The translations under genes were made by a program, and so were the position numbers. From positions 13,628 through 77,627 of the forward strand of contig CAUTZH010000003.1 in NCBI GenBank assembly GCA_963543155.1: a stretch of DNA of 64,000 nucleotides, written 5' to 3'. The notes under the pieces are model-generated. The model searched no databases. It was not told the origin of the DNA and saw only the letters and a list, made by a program, of their open reading frames with translations. Below are positions 3,630-60,575 of the stretch, piece by piece (within the stretch, counting starts at the first letter, position 1; every line of letters begins with the position of its first letter). Origin of the DNA: an uncultured Acholeplasmataceae bacterium (GTDB lineage: Bacteria; Bacillota_I; Bacilli_A; Acholeplasmatales; Acholeplasmataceae).

Positions 3630-5251
3630 AGTTTTTCCTCCAAAAGTACTGTGGCCAAGCAACCAATTGCCTGGTTTTGGCCAATTAACCCATTTTTTTC
3701 AAAAGTAGTGGCTTTAACTGAAACCAAAGGGCAGTCAAGTGCTTGCATTAAGTTTTTTGAAATTAAAGTTTTTTTAAAGCCTAGTTTAGGTTGTTCAAGC
3801 ATCACGGTAATATCTGCGTTTTTCACGCGGTAATTTAAGTCGTTTGCTTTCTTTAAAGCAAACGCTAAAAATTCAAAAGAAGACCTGTTTTGATTGATTT
3901 TATCAGTTTCTTTGAAGTTATCGCCCAAATCACCTGAATTTAAAGCGCCTAGTATTGCTTCGGTTACAGAGTGTATAACCACATCTCCGTCTGAAACTGC
4001 TAAAAAGTGTTTATCTTTTTCAATCAAAACTCCGGCAAGAGTGAGTTCTCCACCTTTTTCAAAAGGGTGAATGTCAAAAGAACTGCCAACTAAACTAGGT
4101 TTTAAAAAGAATGATTTAGTTAGTGAAAAATCAGCAGGTGTTGTGATTTTAGGTAATCTGTTTTCAGAAAGCAACAAGGTAAAAGGTTCGCTTTGTTCTG
4201 AAAACAATTCAAACTCGTCTTGATAGTCGGTTTTTTTAGCAACGGATACACATTCTTTTAACTTTGTTTTTAAAAAAGCCTGTGGCGTAATTGTGGTGAA
4301 ATAGTTGGTTCTGTCAAGGGTTTCTCCGTTGTAGTTTTTTAAAGACGAATAAATTTGGTTTGCTAAAACAGCGCCTTGTTTAGTTTCTAAAACCGTTTTT
4401 ATGTTTTCAAGGTCTTCACCCAAAATTACTGGTCTGGCAGCATCATGAACATAAACATAAGTTCCAGTTGCTTGGTTAAGTCCGACTTTCATTGACAAAA
4501 ATCTAGTTTCTTTGCCGGTTAGCGTAAATACTGCTGGATTTTTAAACTCGGAGTTTGCAAAAGTATCAAATACTTCGTTTTGCGCAACCAAAATACACTC
4601 AAAACCATTTTTTAAAAAAGTGTTAACAGAATGTATAAAAACTGGTAAGTTAACAAGTTTTTTTAAGGCTTTATTTTCACCAAAACGAGAAGAGTTACCC
4701 GCTGCTAAAATTAGTGCTGTGTTTTTAAAAGGAGTGACGATATCTTTAGCCTTTACGTCGTGCGCTTCGGCTTCAAATGAAATCAAGCGGTCGGCTACAT
4801 GAATTAAGGCAGCCGAGTATTTAAGAGCAGCAAAATACCTGTCAATGTTGCCTTTGCCATAGCCTAATCTTTGGCTGTGTTCGTTAACTGCTAAGCATGG
4901 CACTAAAAACAAGTCAATTTTTTCTGAGTATACAGTAAAGTCAGCAGGTTCAAAAAAGTTGTAGCGTTTAATAAACTGAGTTTTGGGTTTTGGCAAAACA
5001 TATCTCAGTTCATTTTCCACAAACGCCGGAAACAAAAAAACTTTGTTGTTTTCTTTAGTTAAAGCAGTGATGTCTAGTTCTCCTTGAATTGGAAAGTAAA
5101 GCGCCACAGTTTTACTGTTTTGATATAGAGAATGTGCTTTGATTTTACTTAGCACAATATCGTTTCTTTGTTGTTTTTCGGTAGTAGTGTAGGTTTTGCG
5201 TTCAGCCAAAATATAGGATCTGGCCTCTGACTTACTAAACACGGTATTCAT
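3623..5251 (-). CDS. Tri-domain fusion: 5-formyltetrahydrofolate cyclo-ligase / IspD (MEP cytidylyltransferase) / IspF (MEcPP synthase)
   Basis: 542 aa. The N-terminal ~175 aa is 5-FCL-like ('IDLFLVPCLAVNEHSQRLGYGKGNIDRYF'). The middle is IspD-like ('ALILAAGNSSRFGENKALKKL'). The C-terminal ~160 aa is IspF-like ('GSSFDIHPF', 'VSDGDVVIHSVTEAILGALNSGDLGDNF'). Confidence 0.8.
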   Translation of the reverse strand: MNTVFSKSEARSYILAERKTYTTTEKQQRNDIVLSKIKAHSLYQNSKTVALYFPIQGELDITALTKENNKVFLFPAFVENELRYVLPKPKTQFIKRYNFFEPADFTVYSEKIDLFLVPCLAVNEHSQRLGYGKGNIDRYFAALKYSAALIHVADRLISFEAEAHDVKAKDIVTPFKNTALILAAGNSSRFGENKALKKLVNLPVFIHSVNTFLKNGFECILVAQNEVFDTFANSEFKNPAVFTLTGKETRFLSMKVGLNQATGTYVYVHDAARPVILGEDLENIKTVLETKQGAVLANQIYSSLKNYNGETLDRTNYFTTITPQAFLKTKLKECVSVAKKTDYQDEFELFSEQSEPFTLLLSENRLPKITTPADFSLTKSFFLKPSLVGSSFDIHPFEKGGELTLAGVLIEKDKHFLAVSDGDVVIHSVTEAILGALNSGDLGDNFKETDKINQNRSSFEFLAFALKKANDLNYRVKNADITVMLEQPKLGFKKTLISKNLMQALDCPLVSVKATTFEKNGLIGQNQAIGCLATVLLEEKLC

Positions 5252-35652: not shown

Positions 35653-35775
35653 ATTTTCCTCCTTAAAAGACTCACTATGAAAGTAATGCAAATAAGCATA
35701 TTTAAAAACTTTTTCTATGTGGTAATAACAATTAATGTTAACACATTTGTGCGTTTTTTACCATTAAAACGCTAG

Positions 35776-37440
35776 TTAGCGAATTACTGAAATTATCGCG
35801 TTAACTATTGGGTTTTTGCGTTTTTTGGTGTAAATAAAGTTAGCAATGTGTTGGCGAAGTTGTTTCTTTAAGTCGTTTAGTTGCAGACCACGTTCGCCTA
35901 CTTTTGCATGGAAATTTACTAAAAAGGTCTTAGCGCTTTCAGTAATTTCTGAAATAAAGTCTGCATCCCGAGAAAAGCCTTTTGAAAATATATTAAAGTC
36001 ACCGTGAACTCTTCGGTCTTGAAACGAATATCTAAAGGCCAAGATAAAAATCCCGTCTTCAGCCAAATAAGCGCGTTCTTTGACGATAATATCGTTATTT
36101 TCGTCAATTGGCACCTCATCGATTAGTTTATCTGCAGCCGGCAACTCTTTTTTAGAGACAAAACCAGTTTTTTTGTTAAAGTGTGCGATGTCTCCGTTTT
36201 CCATTATCAAAATGTTTTTTTCCTTAAACCCAAAAGTTATTAAGGTCTCTTTTAGTTTAACTTGTTGGCTATACTCACCACGCAAAGGAATAATATAACG
36301 GGGATTTAAAAGCGAAAGCATAAAAGAAATGTCGGTGCTTGAAGCCAGGTCGTGGACAATTAAATTAGGCTTGTAGTAAGTTTTGCACTCTGTTTTAAAA
36401 AGTTCATCCAAAGTTGCTGCAAACATTGTCTCAACCCCTGGAATTGGTTTCATTAAAATACAAACTGCATCTTCCTTTGAAAGCGTTTGGCGGGGATTTT
36501 TAGACTTCGCGATGCTTTGTAGTTTAATAAGCGGTGTATTTAAGTTACCAGGGATAATCATGACGACATTCTGTATCCCGTTTTCATATACGTGTTTTTG
36601 TGAAACTAAAGATTTTAAATCAAGCGACAGGTAGCCTTTTTTAATTAAAGGAAGCAGTTTCATAAAAGATTTGCGGCTAGAGAAGCAAATTTTTCTATCT
36701 AAGCGCTCAGCCCAAGTAATAATTTCTTGAATTCGCTTAATGTCGGTGTCTGCGACTGCAAAAAACAATCTGCCTTCAGTGTTTTTAAAAACAGTGGTTA
36801 AAAACGCTTGGTATTTGTCTTGAGTGTATGAAGTGGTAAACTGAGAAACACCTGAACAGTCTGGAAGTAAGGCCAAAGTGTCTTTTGCCAAAGCGGCTTC
36901 CATTAGTGCGGAGAACTCAGTTTGGTAAAGTGGATGTGGGGTTTTGTTTAAAGAAAAAGAACCTGTGTAAATGATTTTGCCAAGTTCAGTCTGAGCAATG
37001 ATACCCACGCTTTCAGGAAGCGCTGAACTTGTGAAATAAAAAGAAAAAGAACAGTCTTTAAAATTGGCTTTAGTTCCTTTTTTAATTTCTCTAAACTCAA
37101 TTTCGGAAGCATCTATATCAGGAGTATCTTCTAAAGTTTGTTTAATTTGGTGAATAGTTAGCTCAGTTGCGTAAACTGGTACCTTGATTTGTTTTAGTAA
37201 AAAAGGCAAGGCTCCAATGTTTTCGTCTTTAAAAGACGACAAAAATATACCCTCAATTTGGTCTTTGTGTGGCAGCAGAGTTGAATAGTCTGCGATAATT
37301 GAGTCAATTCCAAACTGTTGTTGAGTTGGGTATTTTAGCCCTGCGTCTAAAATAAAGATAGAACGATTGACTTGTAGGCAGAAGAAGTTTTTGCCAATTT
37401 CTCCAAATCCACCAAGCCCAAAAATTTTAATATTAGTAAT
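35776..37440 (-). CDS. RNase J-family paralog with degenerate catalytic motifs; non-ATG (ATT) start inferred
   Basis: The track ORF starts at TTG 37242, but the frame stays open up to 37449. The extra N-terminus reads '..IKIFGLGGFGEIGKNFFCLQVNRSIFILDAGLKYP', the conserved RNase J N-terminus. Only ATT codons (37443, 37440, 37434) are available as starts after the GAGG. Total length is ~554 aa, typical for RNase J. Confidence 0.7.
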   Translation of the reverse strand: MTNIKIFGLGGFGEIGKNFFCLQVNRSIFILDAGLKYPTQQQFGIDSIIADYSTLLPHKDQIEGIFLSSFKDENIGALPFLLKQIKVPVYATELTIHQIKQTLEDTPDIDASEIEFREIKKGTKANFKDCSFSFYFTSSALPESVGIIAQTELGKIIYTGSFSLNKTPHPLYQTEFSALMEAALAKDTLALLPDCSGVSQFTTSYTQDKYQAFLTTVFKNTEGRLFFAVADTDIKRIQEIITWAERLDRKICFSSRKSFMKLLPLIKKGYLSLDLKSLVSQKHVYENGIQNVVMIIPGNLNTPLIKLQSIAKSKNPRQTLSKEDAVCILMKPIPGVETMFAATLDELFKTECKTYYKPNLIVHDLASSTDISFMLSLLNPRYIIPLRGEYSQQVKLKETLITFGFKEKNILIMENGDIAHFNKKTGFVSKKELPAADKLIDEVPIDENNDIIVKERAYLAEDGIFILAFRYSFQDRRVHGDFNIFSKGFSRDADFISEITESAKTFLVNFHAKVGERGLQLNDLKKQLRQHIANFIYTKKRKNPIVNAIISVIR

Positions 37441-37478
37441 AATACACCTCGTTTAAATAATTTTTTTAAATTTAATTT

Positions 37479-37515
37479 ATTTATCTTTGTATTTTCCTTA
37501 AAAATAAAGATAAAT
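37479..37515 (-). promoter_or_regulatory. 5'-leader hairpin of the RNase J-like gene, with an extended -10 upstream
   Basis: Perfect 10-bp stem atttatcttt / aaagataaat, downstream of a minus-strand TGgTAAAAT (~37.54 kb). Confidence 0.4.
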
Positions 37516-37645
37516 GATTTTTGCTGTTAATGTATTTTACCATAGTATAGCGTGAGTTTTTTTAGATAAGTAAGCCGTAAAAATCTCAAGACTAATGCTT
37601 TTTAACCTAATTTAAGTGATTTTATCCCTTTTCCCATAATAAGCA

Positions 37646-37676
37646 AAAATCCAGTAGAGTCACTCTACTGGATTTT
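37646..37676 (-). terminator. Terminator closing the SMC-like operon
   Basis: aaaaatccagtagagt-c-actctactggatttt: perfect 15-bp stem, 23 nt after the stop of the 1109-aa gene. Confidence 0.8.
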
Positions 37677-37698
37677 AAGATTAATTCAACAAAAAAAC

Positions 37699-40600
37699 TT
37701 AGTTAAGACTTGGGTTTTCTGTGCTTTCTTCTGCGCTTTGCTCAGCCTCAGGAGTTTCTGCAATTGTTTTAATTAGTGGTTCTTTTTGAAACTCTTTGAC
37801 AAAAGAAAGTTCTTTGTGTTTAACGACTGTCAGCGAAGTTGTAACGTATTGAATGATGTTAGCCACACGTTGTGGAGGAACGGCGATAAACAACTGAATA
37901 GCTAGTGAGTTATAGAAAGTCATCATCGCGCTGATTCTAGATTCATCCATATTGTTAAAAGCCTCGTCAAAAAGAACTAGACAGCCAGATCCTGCACCGC
38001 GGTTTCTTGAAAGCAATTGTTGGAAGGAAGCCGCAATTACGATATAGAAAGGAACTTGGGTCTCTCCACCTGATTTTTCGCGAGAAACTTTTGAAAAAAG
38101 CGAAACTACGTTGTCCTCAGAAGTAATTTCAATGTCGTATTTCATGTAGTTGCGGTAGTCAAGTAATCTTGCCGCAGTTTTTTCCATCGCAGGGTCAGTT
38201 GACGAAATTTGTCTAAATAAGTCATCTAAAATTGTAGTTTGAGTTTTGTTTAAGTTGTCTTGAAAAAGCGTGTTGTTTAACTCGTGGTTGCGAGTAAGTA
38301 GATTGTAGTATCGCTCAAAGTCTGGGTCTTCAGCGGCCTTGTAAATTAGTTTATAGGTATCTTTACCAAAGCGTTTGCCTTGAAGTGCAACATTCAGGTC
38401 ATCAATTTGCTGTTTAGCCTGCTCAATTGAAGAGGCAAGTTTATTTACAAACTCTTCTTTAAAAGTAGTTTCCGCTGAGTCTCTCAGTTCTTTGGCTTTT
38501 TGCTCGTAGACTATTAAGTTATGGTTCTTAATTTCGTTTTGTTCAGCCTCAAAAGCAGTTAAGTTCTCAATTAGCGGTTCTTTTGAAAAACTGTATCTTA
38601 AGCAGTAGTCAGACATTAGTTTTAAAACCATGACGCTTTGTCTTGAAACTGAGTTTGCGAGTTTAGTTTGACTGGTTTCAAGAACTTCAATTATCTTAGT
38701 CGGATCTTCGTGTCGTTTAAGCAGTGCACTGTATTTAGTGTTGGCAGCACTAAGCAGTTCTGGGTTGTTAATCTGAAGTTCTTCCAGTTCTTGTTTATAA
38801 ACCGCTTGAGTTTCTTCAGTTTGGTTGCGGCGAACTTCAACGTCTTGCAGAACTTGCTCAATTCTACCACGGCGAGTAATTAACTCCTCGTGCTGAGTAA
38901 GAATTTGGCTGCGTTCGCTTTCTGCTTTGTCAATTTGGGCCTCAATTTCTTTAATGTCGGTGCCTTTTGCTAGATTTTCTTTTTGAGCCTGTAATTCTTG
39001 GATTTTACCTGTAAAAATCTTGATATTGTCGTTTGCAGAAAAACGGTTTTCTTGAATAATTCGGGCAGCCGCTAGGCGTTCAGCAAGTTGGCGAGTATAA
39101 GTTGTTTCACCAATTTCTTTAGAAATTGTGGCAAGATTTTGAGTTTTTTGCTCAATTTCTCTTAAAATAATTTCTTTTTGTTTAGTGTTACCGGTGATAC
39201 CGATCTGTTTTCTTGCCCAAGATTGTGGGTTTAGTTGAGAGGCGGTGTAGTTTGAGTAAGTCATTCCAAGTGGCTCAACAGAGCGGCTGAAGTTCTTAAG
39301 TTCTTTTGGTGTAGCCACGCAAATTACATTGTTGTAAAGCATGTTAATGTAAGCGCGAGCATAGGTGTGGCTGGTATCAATCTTGCCAGCAAGTGAGTCG
39401 TCAGCAGTTTGGGTTTGTGGGATTTTGCCGGTGTTGACCAAACCTACTCCAAAAATATTTAAAGTAGTTCTAACTTCGTTGTAGACCTCTAGTGCGTCGT
39501 CAAAATACTCAGGGTCAACAATTATGTTGAACTTGTTTCTGCCGATATAACCTTCGGCTACATTTCGCCAAGTTTCATCGTTGACTTCAATTAAGTCACA
39601 AAGTGGACGGAAATTAAACTCACGACGGTATTTTTGGCTGAGTTTTTCATTAATTTTTTCAACTAAAGCCGTAGTTTGTGGTGGATACATCTTGATGTTT
39701 CGCTCAAGATTGTAGTGCTCTTCTTTAAGTTGAGCAATTTCTTTGCGAATTGCTTCAGACTGCTCATTTAGTTTGTAAATACGAGCATTTGCGCCTTCTA
39801 TCAGCAGTTCTTTAAACTCAGCGATAGCCTCTAGGTTTTCTTTGACTTTAGCAATGTCTTTAAAGGCAGTTTGGCTGTGCATTTTGGCGAAATTCTTTAA
39901 AATTTCGTTAGTTTTGATGCGTTTTGCCAGTTCTTGAGTGGTACCAAGTTCTTGAATTAATGAGTTTTCAAGGTCTTTAGCCTTGATTTTCTCAGCCTCA
40001 ATTTGTGTATTGGTACGCTGAATTTCGCGAGAAATTCCGTCTAGAGTTTGAGCAAGTGAGTTAGATCCACGAGCGCGATCTAAGTTCTTAATTGTCTCTT
40101 CTTTGGCCAAAATTTGGGTCTTTAGTTCAGTGATTTGGTCCAAAATTTCTGAAAGCAGAGCAGTATTTTGTTGTTTTTCTAAACTGCATTGCTTAATAAT
40201 TGCTTCTTTTGAATTAAGTTCAGTGATTTTTTTCGTAATGTCGTTGGCAGCGATTTCGTCTTTTTCTGCCTTAATTTCGGCAGAAGAGACACGGATTTTT
40301 TCAAGAGCCTCGATTTTTTCGCGGTCTTTTTTAATTTCTGCCTCTATTTTTTTAAGCTCAGCAACATTGTTTTTAAGCGAAGAAATGTTAACTTGTGTGT
40401 TGTCAAGCAGGAACTCAAAAATGAAACTTTGCAGGTCAATCGGCTTGAAAGCAAGGGCTTTGGGAAGCAGTTTACTGTATTTTAAGCCATCAATTCCAAG
40501 AAATACAGAAAGTGCTTCTTTGTATTGTTTGTTAGTGTCAAATGCTTCAAACTTAATTTGTGCGCTGTCCAGGTAGTCGCGCATTGACTTAAAGTTACGT

Positions 40601-41028
40601 GGACGCTTATCTTCAATGTACATCGCATCGTCAATTCGTGTGTTTTTAATACGGTAAAAACGCTCTTTTAGCGAAGAGCTTTGTGGTAGGTCTATGACTA
40701 CCCCAATAATTGAGTATTTTTCGTCTCTAGTGTCAAAAAACTCAAGAGCAATATGAGTAATTACGTCGCCTGGTCTGATAAACTGCTTGTTTTCACCACC
40801 TAATTTACCGCGAATATAGCCCTCAAGTGTACGTTTAGCCTCAGGGGTTGCCGCGATATTAAAGTGCGCGTTTTGACGGCCTCCAACCAAAACATACTGC
40901 ATGGCGTCTAGTAGTGTTGACTTACCAGAGCCATTTTCTCCACTTAAAAGGATGTTGTCTTTAATGTCTAGAGTGACGTTTTGAAAGGTGTGCCAGTTAA
41001 TAATTTTAATTTTAGTTAACTTCTTCAT
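37699..41028 (-). CDS. SMC-like ATPase, JetC/MksB-like
   Basis: 1109 aa. N-terminal head 'IKIINWHTFQNVTLDIKDNILLSGENGSGKSTLLDAMQYVL' (Walker A). Several hundred aa of coiled coil. C-terminal 'SGGETQVPFY' and 'GCLVLFDEAFNNMDESR' (Walker B). Confidence 0.75.
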   Translation of the reverse strand: MKKLTKIKIINWHTFQNVTLDIKDNILLSGENGSGKSTLLDAMQYVLVGGRQNAHFNIAATPEAKRTLEGYIRGKLGGENKQFIRPGDVITHIALEFFDTRDEKYSIIGVVIDLPQSSSLKERFYRIKNTRIDDAMYIEDKRPRNFKSMRDYLDSAQIKFEAFDTNKQYKEALSVFLGIDGLKYSKLLPKALAFKPIDLQSFIFEFLLDNTQVNISSLKNNVAELKKIEAEIKKDREKIEALEKIRVSSAEIKAEKDEIAANDITKKITELNSKEAIIKQCSLEKQQNTALLSEILDQITELKTQILAKEETIKNLDRARGSNSLAQTLDGISREIQRTNTQIEAEKIKAKDLENSLIQELGTTQELAKRIKTNEILKNFAKMHSQTAFKDIAKVKENLEAIAEFKELLIEGANARIYKLNEQSEAIRKEIAQLKEEHYNLERNIKMYPPQTTALVEKINEKLSQKYRREFNFRPLCDLIEVNDETWRNVAEGYIGRNKFNIIVDPEYFDDALEVYNEVRTTLNIFGVGLVNTGKIPQTQTADDSLAGKIDTSHTYARAYINMLYNNVICVATPKELKNFSRSVEPLGMTYSNYTASQLNPQSWARKQIGITGNTKQKEIILREIEQKTQNLATISKEIGETTYTRQLAERLAAARIIQENRFSANDNIKIFTGKIQELQAQKENLAKGTDIKEIEAQIDKAESERSQILTQHEELITRRGRIEQVLQDVEVRRNQTEETQAVYKQELEELQINNPELLSAANTKYSALLKRHEDPTKIIEVLETSQTKLANSVSRQSVMVLKLMSDYCLRYSFSKEPLIENLTAFEAEQNEIKNHNLIVYEQKAKELRDSAETTFKEEFVNKLASSIEQAKQQIDDLNVALQGKRFGKDTYKLIYKAAEDPDFERYYNLLTRNHELNNTLFQDNLNKTQTTILDDLFRQISSTDPAMEKTAARLLDYRNYMKYDIEITSEDNVVSLFSKVSREKSGGETQVPFYIVIAASFQQLLSRNRGAGSGCLVLFDEAFNNMDESRISAMMTFYNSLAIQLFIAVPPQRVANIIQYVTTSLTVVKHKELSFVKEFQKEPLIKTIAETPEAEQSAEESTENPSLN

Positions 41029-58750: not shown

Positions 58751-59363
58751 GATTGAAGAACTGCTTAAAAATGAAAAAGTTGAATGGAAGAAATTAATTG
58801 AAGTAGCAACTATAGTCAAAGGTGTTCAATTTAATAAAAGTAATATGCAAAATGTAGGAAAATATCCAGTTATAAACGGCGGTATTTTGCCATCTGGTTA
58901 TATTGATATATTTAACTGCAACGAAAACACTATTACTGTTGCACAAGGTGGTTCTGCTGGTTTCGTTAGTTTTTTAGAAAGTAAGTTTTGGTTAGGAGCA
59001 CACGCCTATTCTGTTATTCCAACTCAAGATACTTTAAAAAAATACGGGTATCAGTATAACACATTTAACAGACTAATATTTCACGTCTTAAAAAATAAAC
59101 AATATGACTTGCAACAATCTAAAGTCGGCGTTTCAATACCTAGTATATCCAAAGATTTTCTTGGTAATATTAAAGTGCCTTTAATCGCAAAAAATATTCA
59201 AGAAAAAATTGTGAAAATACTCGACAATTTTACAAATTATGTTGCTGAATTGCAGGCTGAATTGCAGGCTAGAGTCAAACAATACGAGTATTATAGAGAA
59301 TTACTATTAAGCGAAGAATACCTAAACAAATTGGCCGCCGTGCGAGAGAGAGAGAGAGAGTAA
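58743..59363 (+). CDS. hsdS: Type I specificity subunit, N-terminal half (TRD1 + central conserved helix), terminated just after a (GA)8 tract
   Basis: Start at ATG 58743 (AAGGAG 7 nt upstream, ATGA overlap with the hsdM stop). '..[38 protein letters not shown]' is the HsdS conserved-region pattern. Ends '..AAVRERERE*'. Confidence 0.85.
59244..59267 (+). repeat. 12-bp tandem duplication (gctgaattgcag x2, encoding AELQ-AELQ) in the hsdS central conserved region
   Basis: Exact direct duplication 59244-59255 / 59256-59267, followed by a partial third 'gct'. Confidence 0.95.
59344..59360 (+). repeat. Dinucleotide repeat (GA)8G inside hsdS
   Basis: gagagagagagagagag. The upstream and downstream hsdS reading frames overlap across it. 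Confidence 0.95.
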
Positions 59364-59364
59364 G

Positions 59365-59904
59365 ATTGAGTTTAAGAGTCTTGGCAGTCTTCTTGAATAT
59401 ATTCAACCGTCTAAATATATTGTTAATTCCACTGAATACAACACAAGTTTTAAAATTCCTGTTTTAACAGCGGGGAAATGCTTCATTTTAGGCTACACAA
59501 ATGAAAGCAATAATATCTATCTTGCAAATTCCGACAATCCAGTTATCATCTTTGACGATTTTACTGCTGCAAACCATTTAGTTGATTTCGACTTTAAAGT
59601 AAAGTCTTCTGCTTTAAAGATATTAAAACCTAAACAAGGTGTTAATTTAAGGTATTGCTATTACTTTATTAACACACTTAATTTAGATACAACAGAACAC
59701 AAACGCATGTGGATTTCAAACTTATCAAAAGTAAAAATGCCTGTTCCTTCTATTGAAATACAAACTAAAATCGTAAAGATTCTAGATAAACTAAACTCTA
59801 TGCAAGCAGAAACTAAAGGGCTACTCCCACAAGAAATCGCTCAACGCCAAAAGCAATATGAATACTACCGTGAAAAGCTGCTGGCTTTTGACACAATGGG
59901 GTAA
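59365..59904 (+). pseudogene. hsdS: hsdS C-terminal half (TRD2 + distal conserved helix), out of frame with the N-terminal half
   Basis: Frame open from 59326-59904 with no upstream start. Reads 'IEFKSLGSLLEYIQPSKYIVN...[47 protein letters not shown]'. One extra GA unit would fuse it to the 58743 ORF, giving ~387 aa. Confidence 0.8.
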
Positions 59905-60575
59905 ACTCTAGCCAGTATCTGCTATTTTTAAAAACTGCGGCGAAAGTCGCTGGTTTAAACCTATTTAGCGTTGAATACAAAACTATTGGCGAAATTGGTG
60001 AACTATACGGCGGAATAACTGGTAAATCTAGAAATGATTTTGTAAACGGCAACGCAAAATTCATCACTTACAACAATATACACGCAAACCCGGCGACTGA
60101 CTTAAATACAACAGAAAAAGTCAAAATACAGCCAGGTGAAAAGCATATGAAGCTAAAATTAGGAGACATTTTGTTTACAGGTTCATCTGGGACACTAGAT
60201 GAGTGTGGACTGTCCTCAGTTATCACCACAACCTCTAGTGAAGATATCTATTTAAACAGTTTTTGTTTTTTTCTTAGATTACATGACCCAAGCATGCTAC
60301 TACCAGATTTTTCTAAACATTTATTTAGATCAGCAACGATGCGCCAAAAAATTATTAAAACAGCAGCTGGTGTTACTAGAAACAATGTTTCTAGAGAATT
60401 GGTCAAAAAAATTCAAATTCCGCTGCCAAGCATCGAAACACAAGAAAAAATTGTAAAAACTCTAGATAAATTTGAAAATTTAATATCTGAAGCAAAAGGT
60501 TTACTGCCAAAAGAAATCACTCAACGTCAAAAACAATTTGAATACTACCGTGAAAAACTTCTATCTTTCAATTAG
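59892..60575 (+). pseudogene. Third, start-less TRD + conserved-helix cassette (orphan half-hsdS)
   Basis: Frame open from 59892: '..VEYKTIGEIGELYGGITGKSRNDFVNGNAKFITYNN...IETQEKIVKTLDKFENLISEAKGLLPKEITQRQKQFEYYREKLLSFN*'. The first ATG/GTG/TTG is at 60147, inside the TRD, and I see no RBS. Confidence 0.7.

Follow-up and report, generated by a model that had tools for sequence, protein, structure and literature searches.

The gene described here lies on the minus strand of a 64-kb window of contig CAUTZH010000003.1 (the window being the whole stretch of DNA that was analyzed, 64,000 nucleotides, and coordinates below being window positions unless another contig is named) from an uncultured Acholeplasmataceae bacterium whose assembly totals 718 kb and is 84% complete. 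It encodes an RNase J2-type paralog in which every catalytic metal ligand has been replaced and which appears to be translated from an AUU codon. The reading frame opens after a TAA at 37455-37453, which the initial annotation of this DNA had placed 3 bases away at 37452-37450, and ends at a stop codon at 35778-35776. Translation from the ATT at 37443 gives a protein of 555 amino acids (P0001), and translation from the ATT at 37440 gives one of 554. The peptides that the annotation had cited as resembling RNase J (FGLGGFGEIGKN, ILDAGLKYP, LLPDCSG, and GRLFFAVADTDIKRIQ) and as remnants of its motifs (SSFKDEN, TSSALPE, YTGSFSLN, HDLAS, and PLRGE) were all found in the minus-strand translation of 35776-37545. 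The genetic code is standard, with TGA terminating 78 of the 522 long open reading frames in the genome. The features of the locus are listed in Table 1.

Table 1. Positions of the RNase J2-type gene, its signals and motif remnants, and nearby features in the window
Feature	Position	Strand	Details
Coding sequence, dead RNase J2-type paralog	35776..37440	-	554 codons plus TAA stop; purifying selection
In-frame TAA closing the frame 5'	37453..37455	-	
Extended -10, TGgTAAAAT	37534..37542	-	TG 37542-37541 plus TAAAAT 37539-37534
5' leader hairpin	37479..37515	-	10- to 12-bp stem, AU-rich loop; about 12 nt past expected transcript start
Shine-Dalgarno sequence, GAGGTG	37445..37450	-	Invariant in 20 orthologs
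Likeliest start, ATT	37438..37440	-	6 nt past GAGG; ATT in 19 of 20 orthologs, ATA in one
Alternative start, ATT	37441..37443	-	3 nt past GAGG; ACT in two species
TTG, earliest canonical start in frame	37240..37242	-	Rejected as main start
Motif II remnant	37219..37236	-	HGHEDH (intact J1) to S70 F71 K72 D73 E74 N75
Motif III remnant	37012..37032	-	SHSIPD (intact J1) to TSSALPE, His to S140
Motif IV remnant	36949..36969	-	TGDFK (intact J1) to YTGSFSL, Asp to S162
Beta-CASP domain, residues 223-348	36400..36777	-	Pfam PF22505, 50.2 bits, above cutoff
Motif B/5'-phosphate pocket remnant	36340..36354	-	HASGHA (intact J1) to IVHDLA (HDLAS), His to L366
Motif C remnant	36274..36288	-	PIHGE (intact J1) to PLRGE, His to R388
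RNase J C-terminal domain, residues 453-552	35788..36087	-	Pfam PF17770, 38.4 bits, above cutoff
JetB/JetC (Wadjet-type SMC) operon	37646-41028	-	Ends in a 14-bp terminator hairpin, 37676-37646, shortly before the RNase J2 promoter
Extended -10-like site, TGgTAAAAA	35755-35763	-	Right past the RNase J2 stop, before the L21 leader candidate
Ribosomal protein L21 leader candidate (RF00559)	35658-35734	-	Subthreshold: 27.8 bits versus gathering score of 36, E = 0.013; just 5' of rplU
Two adjoining frames resembling hsdS fragments	59326-60575	+	192 and 227 codons

Family assignment and loss of the catalytic site

The protein matched the NCBIfam model for the RNase J family, TIGR00649, from residue 5 to residue 551 (model positions 1 to 545 of 546), with a score of 346.4 bits against a cutoff of 400, and it scored 319 against the cutoff of 820 of the RnjA model NF047419, thus falling below both curated thresholds. 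A Pfam search returned the beta-CASP and RNase J C-terminal domains above their cutoffs, an RNA-specificity (RMMBL) domain below its cutoff, and no match to Lactamase_B. The top sequence matches in the PDB, obtained with HMMER, were staphylococcal RNase J2 (6k6w, 8yy*; 244 bits) and Bacillus subtilis RNase J1 (243 bits), both aligning end to end. An AlphaFold2 model built from 68 homologs had a mean predicted local distance difference test score of 86.1 and a predicted template modeling (TM) score of 0.77. In Foldseek comparisons this model reached a TM score of 0.89 to the integrative RNJ2-RNJ1 model 9a5v and of 0.87 to 0.90 to 3zq4, and the three-domain RNase J fold, consisting of metallo-beta-lactamase, beta-CASP, and C-terminal domains, is therefore intact. 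The C-terminal domain, through which RNase J1 dimerizes, was modeled as beta-beta-alpha-alpha-beta.

The register of the catalytic motifs was taken from MAFFT alignments with the second RNase J of the same genome and many homologs and from HMMER alignments with PDB chains, and both confirmed the register in which the initial annotation had read the metallo-beta-lactamase and beta-CASP motifs as degenerate. The metal ligands of Staphylococcus epidermidis RNase J1 are His74, His76, Asp78, His79, His142, Asp164, and His390 (PMC7864078). The equivalents of all seven, together with the His of motif B, are replaced in the window protein (Table 1). The HxHxDH of motif II, the His of motif III, the Asp of motif IV, and the His of motif C are accordingly missing, as is the HxSGH of the 5'-monophosphate pocket. 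All eight replaced positions were invariant in 20 of 20 orthologs, with Lys72 and Arg388 occupying two of the former metal-ligand positions throughout the genus.

We considered whether the protein could still be a nuclease, acting through other residues or a single metal. The Asp33 of motif I, the Asp of motif A, and Glu74 are retained, and the J2 proteins of staphylococci function with a single Mn in an altered site (PMC7864078 for S. epidermidis; PMC11815676 for Staphylococcus aureus). However, the four His ligands are all gone, and of the residues of S. aureus J2 only H80 and E166 are critical (PMC11815676), for which the window protein has Glu74 and Ser162 at the equivalent positions. The missing Lactamase_B match and the subthreshold RMMBL match also argue against residual catalysis, and we regard it as highly unlikely. 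The ligand loss is well supported. Because all metal ligands and the 5'-phosphate pocket have been lost, the protein, as judged from its sequence, cannot be a metallo-nuclease, and it is presumably without any residual activity.

Selection on the gene and presence of an intact RNase J1

A search of the same genome for a catalytically intact RNase J, which the initial annotation had proposed, found one on contig C2 (G000; L002 1480-3141). This 553-amino-acid RNase J1 carries HGHEDH, SHSIPD, TGDFK, HASGH, and PIHGE and scores 495 bits against TIGR00649 and 639 bits against the RnjA model. The J2-type gene thus occurs together with a catalytically intact RNase J1, as J2 genes do. Orthologs of the window gene, with 87 to 99% identity, were present in all 18 sister species genomes of the genus (uncultured Acholeplasmataceae of about 0.7 Mb), and both RNase J paralogs were returned in 16 of the 18. 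Of 41 genomes searched across the order, only G021 and G040, which are 72 to 77% complete, did not yield two paralogs.

Ratios of nonsynonymous to synonymous substitution rates (dN/dS) were calculated by the Nei-Gojobori method for each ortholog against the window copy, with dS values of up to 1.2. The whole-gene dN/dS was 0.032 to 0.073 among the genus orthologs, and that of the 68 N-terminal codons, 5' of TTG 37242, was 0.024 to 0.091; the intact J1 gave 0.013 to 0.032 in the same comparison. The full-length frame was open in 19 of the 20 species. Strong purifying selection, almost as stringent as for J1, is well supported by these values, and the possibility raised earlier that the gene is decaying did not hold, because the dN/dS is 0.03 to 0.07 and the frames are open across the genus.

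Translation from an AUU codon

Past the upstream stop, the frame reads ACG AGG TGT ATT ATT ACT AAT ATT AAA ATT TTT GGG. The earliest in-frame ATG, GTG, or TTG is the TTG at 37242, which is codon 68 counting from ATT 37443 and is preceded by 67 sense codons, so that the conserved N-terminal strand lies 5' of every canonical start, as had been noted initially. The same annotation had named three ATT codons as plausible initiators; those at 37443 and 37440 are present, and the triplet at 37434 is AAT, with the third ATT at 37431. No ATG, GTG, or TTG was found between the in-frame stop and the conserved N terminus in 19 of the 20 orthologs, leaving a near-cognate codon as the only initiator, as in genes of the infC type. 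In 11 other genera, the J2-type ortholog begins with ATG or GTG at a codon that precedes the ALGG motif by eight codons and aligns exactly with ATT 37440. Since the homologous codon is ATG or GTG in those genera, an ancestral AUG was changed to AUU within this genus.

In a genome-wide screen, the J2-type gene was the only full-length gene with at least 40 sense codons ahead of its first canonical start. A second screen, for a Shine-Dalgarno sequence followed by ATT, ATC, or ATA, gave convincing cases near the 5' end of a frame only for the J2-type gene and infC. The infC gene of this genome (contig C17 of G000, approximately 3807-3809, locus L084) appears to start at an ATC that lies 7 nt past GAAAGGAG and closely follows a terminator-like hairpin. 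Taken together, the lack of a canonical start in 19 of 20 orthologs, the spacing of 6 nt from the Shine-Dalgarno sequence, and the alignment of the ATT with the homologous ATG in other genera provide good support for the predicted AUU start, in agreement with the initiation proposed in the initial annotation.

Two other start codons were examined and rejected. The GTG at 37447-37445, which overlaps the Shine-Dalgarno sequence, is out of frame and reaches a stop after four codons. Initiation at TTG 37242, which the initial annotation had named among the outcomes that would overturn its reading, would yield an N-terminally truncated product; the 67 codons upstream of it have a dN/dS of 0.02 to 0.09, and in the AlphaFold2 model the residues that they encode form five core beta-strands (strands 1 to 5) plus a helix. 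Because this segment is constrained and forms core strands, it is translated and needed, which excludes TTG 37242 as the start. Public gene calls for the genus (P0002 and P0003) use an internal TTG and give 500 amino acids, cutting off about 55 conserved N-terminal residues, and this shortened product is explained by the true start being an ATT.

That the gene is a decaying pseudogene, or yields only the truncated product from TTG 37242, was weighed with these data in hand. It would fit the lack of a canonical start before the conserved N terminus, the 500-amino-acid products of the public gene callers, a stop at codon 20 in one ortholog (G009), and a GAGGG located 7 nt before TTG 37242 in the window copy alone. 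Against it, 19 of 20 species keep the full-length frame open with dS values of up to 1.2 and a dN/dS of 0.03 to 0.07, the N-terminal segment with its five core strands is equally constrained, and relatives do not share the internal GAGGG. We consider this explanation barely tenable.

Promoter and leader hairpin

Both of the upstream elements described in the initial annotation, an extended -10 and a perfect 10-bp leader hairpin, are present. No good -35 accompanies the TGgTAAAAT, and a simple -35/-10 scan did not list the site; the TGGTAAAATA string that contains the extended -10 was invariant in 20 of 20 orthologous loci. The inverted repeat of the hairpin lies exactly at 37515-37506 and 37488-37479, and its fold has a z-score of -3.0. 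Across the 20 orthologs, 92.9% of the alignment cells were paired, compared to 36 to 60% in slid controls, and three pairs were changed on both sides. The two most divergent species (L005 3755-3795 and L022) have a register-shifted, GC-richer stem of 12 to 13 bp followed by U7, which resembles an intrinsic terminator or attenuator situated between the promoter and the start codon. An Rfam search of the 5' leader gave no match. The leader hairpin could be a stabilizer, a protein site, or an attenuator.

One reading of these elements is that the AUU start and the leader hairpin form a dedicated control tying the amount of the dead J2 to the IF3 level or growth state. If so, substrate choice by J1/J2 and global mRNA decay would be tied to IF3 and growth, and J2 would be a fully regulatory subunit. 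We consider such a dedicated control doubtful.

Phylogeny of the paralogs

Phylogenetic trees separated a J1 clade (support of 100) from a J2-type clade (98 to 100) that holds the window protein. Members of the J2-type clade include a Streptococcus protein with HGHADA and PIQGE, an Izimaplasma protein named "Ribonuclease J 2," second Acholeplasma paralogs, and phytoplasma proteins. The J2 proteins of B. subtilis and S. aureus were left out of the trees, and orthology rests on the Streptococcus, Izimaplasma, and phytoplasma members. No member of the clade retains the motif C His, which is replaced by Ile, Gln, Lys, Met, or Ser, and the clade also lacks the initial His of HxSGH. The Acholeplasma paralogs retain HAHEDH, several metagenomic members are partly eroded (HAHEDN, NAHEEH, HAYEES, and SGHDDF), and 22 of 22 phytoplasma-clade proteins are fully eroded, with SAFETH/N, SSLESH, and others in place of motif II and with the His residues of motifs B and C absent. 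The phytoplasma J2-type paralogs (P0122-P0145; L034 1498-3183) are named "ribonuclease J," "ribonuclease J2," or "Zn-dependent hydrolase" by their sources.

Under LG+C20 the stem of the window genus measured 2.04 substitutions per site and that of the phytoplasmas 0.96. In the best tree the window genus groups with the partly eroded metagenomic proteins; a clade uniting it with the phytoplasmas was not rejected (P of 0.42 in the approximately unbiased test). Complete ligand loss may thus have occurred independently in the window genus and in the phytoplasmas, with a single loss also compatible with these alignments. A join of the genus with "Candidatus Phytoplasma australiense" in a first tree, which came with a long-branch warning, was gone in a denser tree under a site-heterogeneous model.

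Genomic neighborhood

Upstream of the J2-type gene are genes for JetB and JetC, and the terminator at the end of this operon, which precedes the J2-type promoter, is strong. On the downstream side the order is a TGgTAAAAA promoter-like site, the L21 leader candidate, rplU, the Prp protease gene (ysxB), rpmA, and obg, and the rplU-prp-rpmA-obg cluster thus seems to be served by a promoter and leader of its own. The J2-type gene lies directly upstream of this cluster across the genus. A regular-expression search of 11 other genera found no rplU adjoining a J2-type gene, and in "Ca. Phytoplasma australiense" the gene downstream of the J2-type paralog is DegV-like; the linkage to rplU is therefore specific to the genus. 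Elsewhere in the window, the two adjoining plus-strand frames at the far end of Table 1 (G000:C3 72953-74202), which have 85 to 127 codons without a canonical start, resemble pieces of a type I restriction specificity (hsdS) gene.

Proposed function

The initial annotation had suggested a catalytically dead RNase J-like pseudoenzyme, possibly a J2-like partner, and the loss of the ligands, the intact fold, the J1 in the same genome, and the placement in the J2-type clade bear this out. We favor, with a probability of roughly 0.72, a protein made from a weak AUU start that serves as a non-catalytic partner or specificity subunit of J1, the partnership itself being the part that we infer. The J2-type paralog would pair with the intact J1 as a non-catalytic subunit, probably in a heterodimer, and this pairing would shape the activity or substrate choice of J1. 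Translation would begin at the conserved AUU at 37440, which would have replaced the ancestral AUG, and such a start should hold synthesis low and make translation sensitive to IF3; any control exerted through the AUU start, such as the infC-like regulation suggested in the initial annotation, or through the hairpin is likewise presumed.

Published experiments on known J2 proteins are consistent with a non-catalytic partner. An S. aureus J2 with H76A and H78A substitutions grows like the wild type, but deleting J2 impairs the cells almost as severely as deleting J1, and the authors proposed that J2 has a structural role in a complex of J1 and J2 (PMC3937233). In B. subtilis, motif II of J2 is HGHDEN and the H76A substitution leaves target half-lives unchanged, whereas R544E at the J1 contact mimics the deletion, leading to the view of J2 as a specificity cofactor of J1 (bioRxiv 10.64898/2026.05.27.728192). 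A J2 that sheds its ligands altogether while retaining the fold and remaining under selection beside an intact J1, as the window protein has done, is an outcome that such a model would predict. The charges at B. subtilis positions 449 and 544 are kept in the window protein, where approximately E448 and K543 correspond to them by alignment offset only and not by residue-level mapping.

Several observations weigh against this interpretation. The C-terminal domain is the least conserved part of the protein within the genus, with 35% variable columns compared to 14 to 16% in the catalytic domains; the C-terminal domain of J1 is also more variable, with a weaker trend. The constrained function may thus lie in the core, for example in RNA binding. 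Of the 77 alignment columns with at least 85% conservation across 67 homologs, 55 are unchanged in the protein and 22 differ, the latter including the ligands and several Arg/Lys positions. An ATT kept in at least 19 of 20 orthologs is matched by 38% of Ile columns, so that its conservation is not statistically unusual, and selection for a weak start is therefore no more than plausible. Finally, the G009 ortholog (L017; G009:C6, L065) is interrupted by an in-frame TAA at codon 20, where GKN would have its Lys; eight changes fall within 18 codons, and the upstream ACG has become ATG. The remaining 535 codons are still constrained (omega of 0.039), and this N terminus may be an assembly artifact or a real N-terminal change.

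The greater constraint on the catalytic-core domains than on the C-terminal dimerization domain would also be expected of a stand-alone RNA-binding or ribosome-biogenesis factor that acts independently of J1, with the dead core reused as an RNA clamp or chaperone. The invariance of Lys72 and Arg388 and the position of the gene directly upstream of rplU-ysxB-rpmA-obg throughout the genus point the same way. Yet the promoter-like site and L21 leader of the rplU cluster mean that the arrangement does not imply coregulation, and "Ca. Phytoplasma australiense" does not share this gene order. The protein has lost the 5'-phosphate pocket along with several conserved basic residues, and all J2 proteins studied act with J1 (PMC3937233; bioRxiv 10.64898/2026.05.27.728192). 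A J1-independent factor therefore seems rather unlikely to us, and a non-catalytic partner of J1 is the function that we retain.

That J2 can be a weakly active or inactive partner of J1 is already known. What is new is a J2 without any ligands, recurring in reduced Acholeplasmataceae including all phytoplasmas examined, and an AUU start across a genus; no description of a ligand-free RNase J2 was found in the literature searched. The S. aureus (2014) and B. subtilis (2026 preprint) experiments suggest that J2 matters as a partner of J1 and not as a nuclease, and the window locus and the phytoplasma proteins are a natural counterpart of the J2 active-site mutants. Because lineages with extremely reduced genomes have lost all ligands but retain the gene under selection almost as stringent as that acting on J1, the non-catalytic role would be the selected one. 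On the practical side, the phytoplasma copies are annotated as "ribonuclease J" or "Zn-dependent hydrolase," and the copies in the window genus are shortened by about 55 residues by gene callers.

Comparison with known systems

The closest known counterpart is RNase J2 (RnjB) of B. subtilis, S. aureus, and S. epidermidis (PDB 6k6w, 8yyk, and the 9a5v model), which resembles the window protein in being a paralog that accompanies an active J1 and in its three-domain fold (TM score of 0.89). In these proteins HxHxDH is also degenerate (HGHDEN in B. subtilis and HGHEHA in S. aureus), with the DEN tail recurring in the window protein, the motif C His is lost, and the catalytic site has proved dispensable in experiments in which the protein itself was needed. 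Known J2 proteins differ in that they keep three or four His ligands, bind metal, and are weakly active, whereas the window protein has neither ligands nor a 5'-phosphate pocket, lies below the RNase J family cutoff (346 versus 400 bits), and has an AUU start.

The phytoplasma proteins annotated as "ribonuclease J" or "J2" ("Ca. P. australiense," "Ca. P. solani," and "Ca. P. pruni") share with it the family Acholeplasmataceae, the paralog clade, the loss of HxHxDH and of the motif B and C His residues, a reduced genome, and an intact J1. They are only about 31% identical to the window protein, however, and have other replacement residues and another genomic context; those of them with N termini that align begin at an annotated Met, the codon of which was checked for "Ca. 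P. australiense" only and is GTG.

With regard to its start, the gene resembles infC and pcnB, the classical AUU-start genes discriminated by IF3, in having a near-cognate AUU after a good Shine-Dalgarno sequence, and the infC of the window genome itself appears to start with ATC. The J2-type gene differs in having no functional link to IF3 itself, and control of its start by IF3 would be hypothetical.

In its proposed manner of working, the J2-type protein resembles CPSF100 and IntS9, inactive metallo-beta-lactamase/beta-CASP paralogs that are obligate partners of the active CPSF73 and IntS11. Those proteins are eukaryotic and remote (TM score of about 0.55 to CPSF73), making this a likeness of working and not of membership. 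Given the presumed pairing with J1, the dead J2 of the window genus and the phytoplasmas would provide a bacterial parallel to CPSF100 and IntS9.

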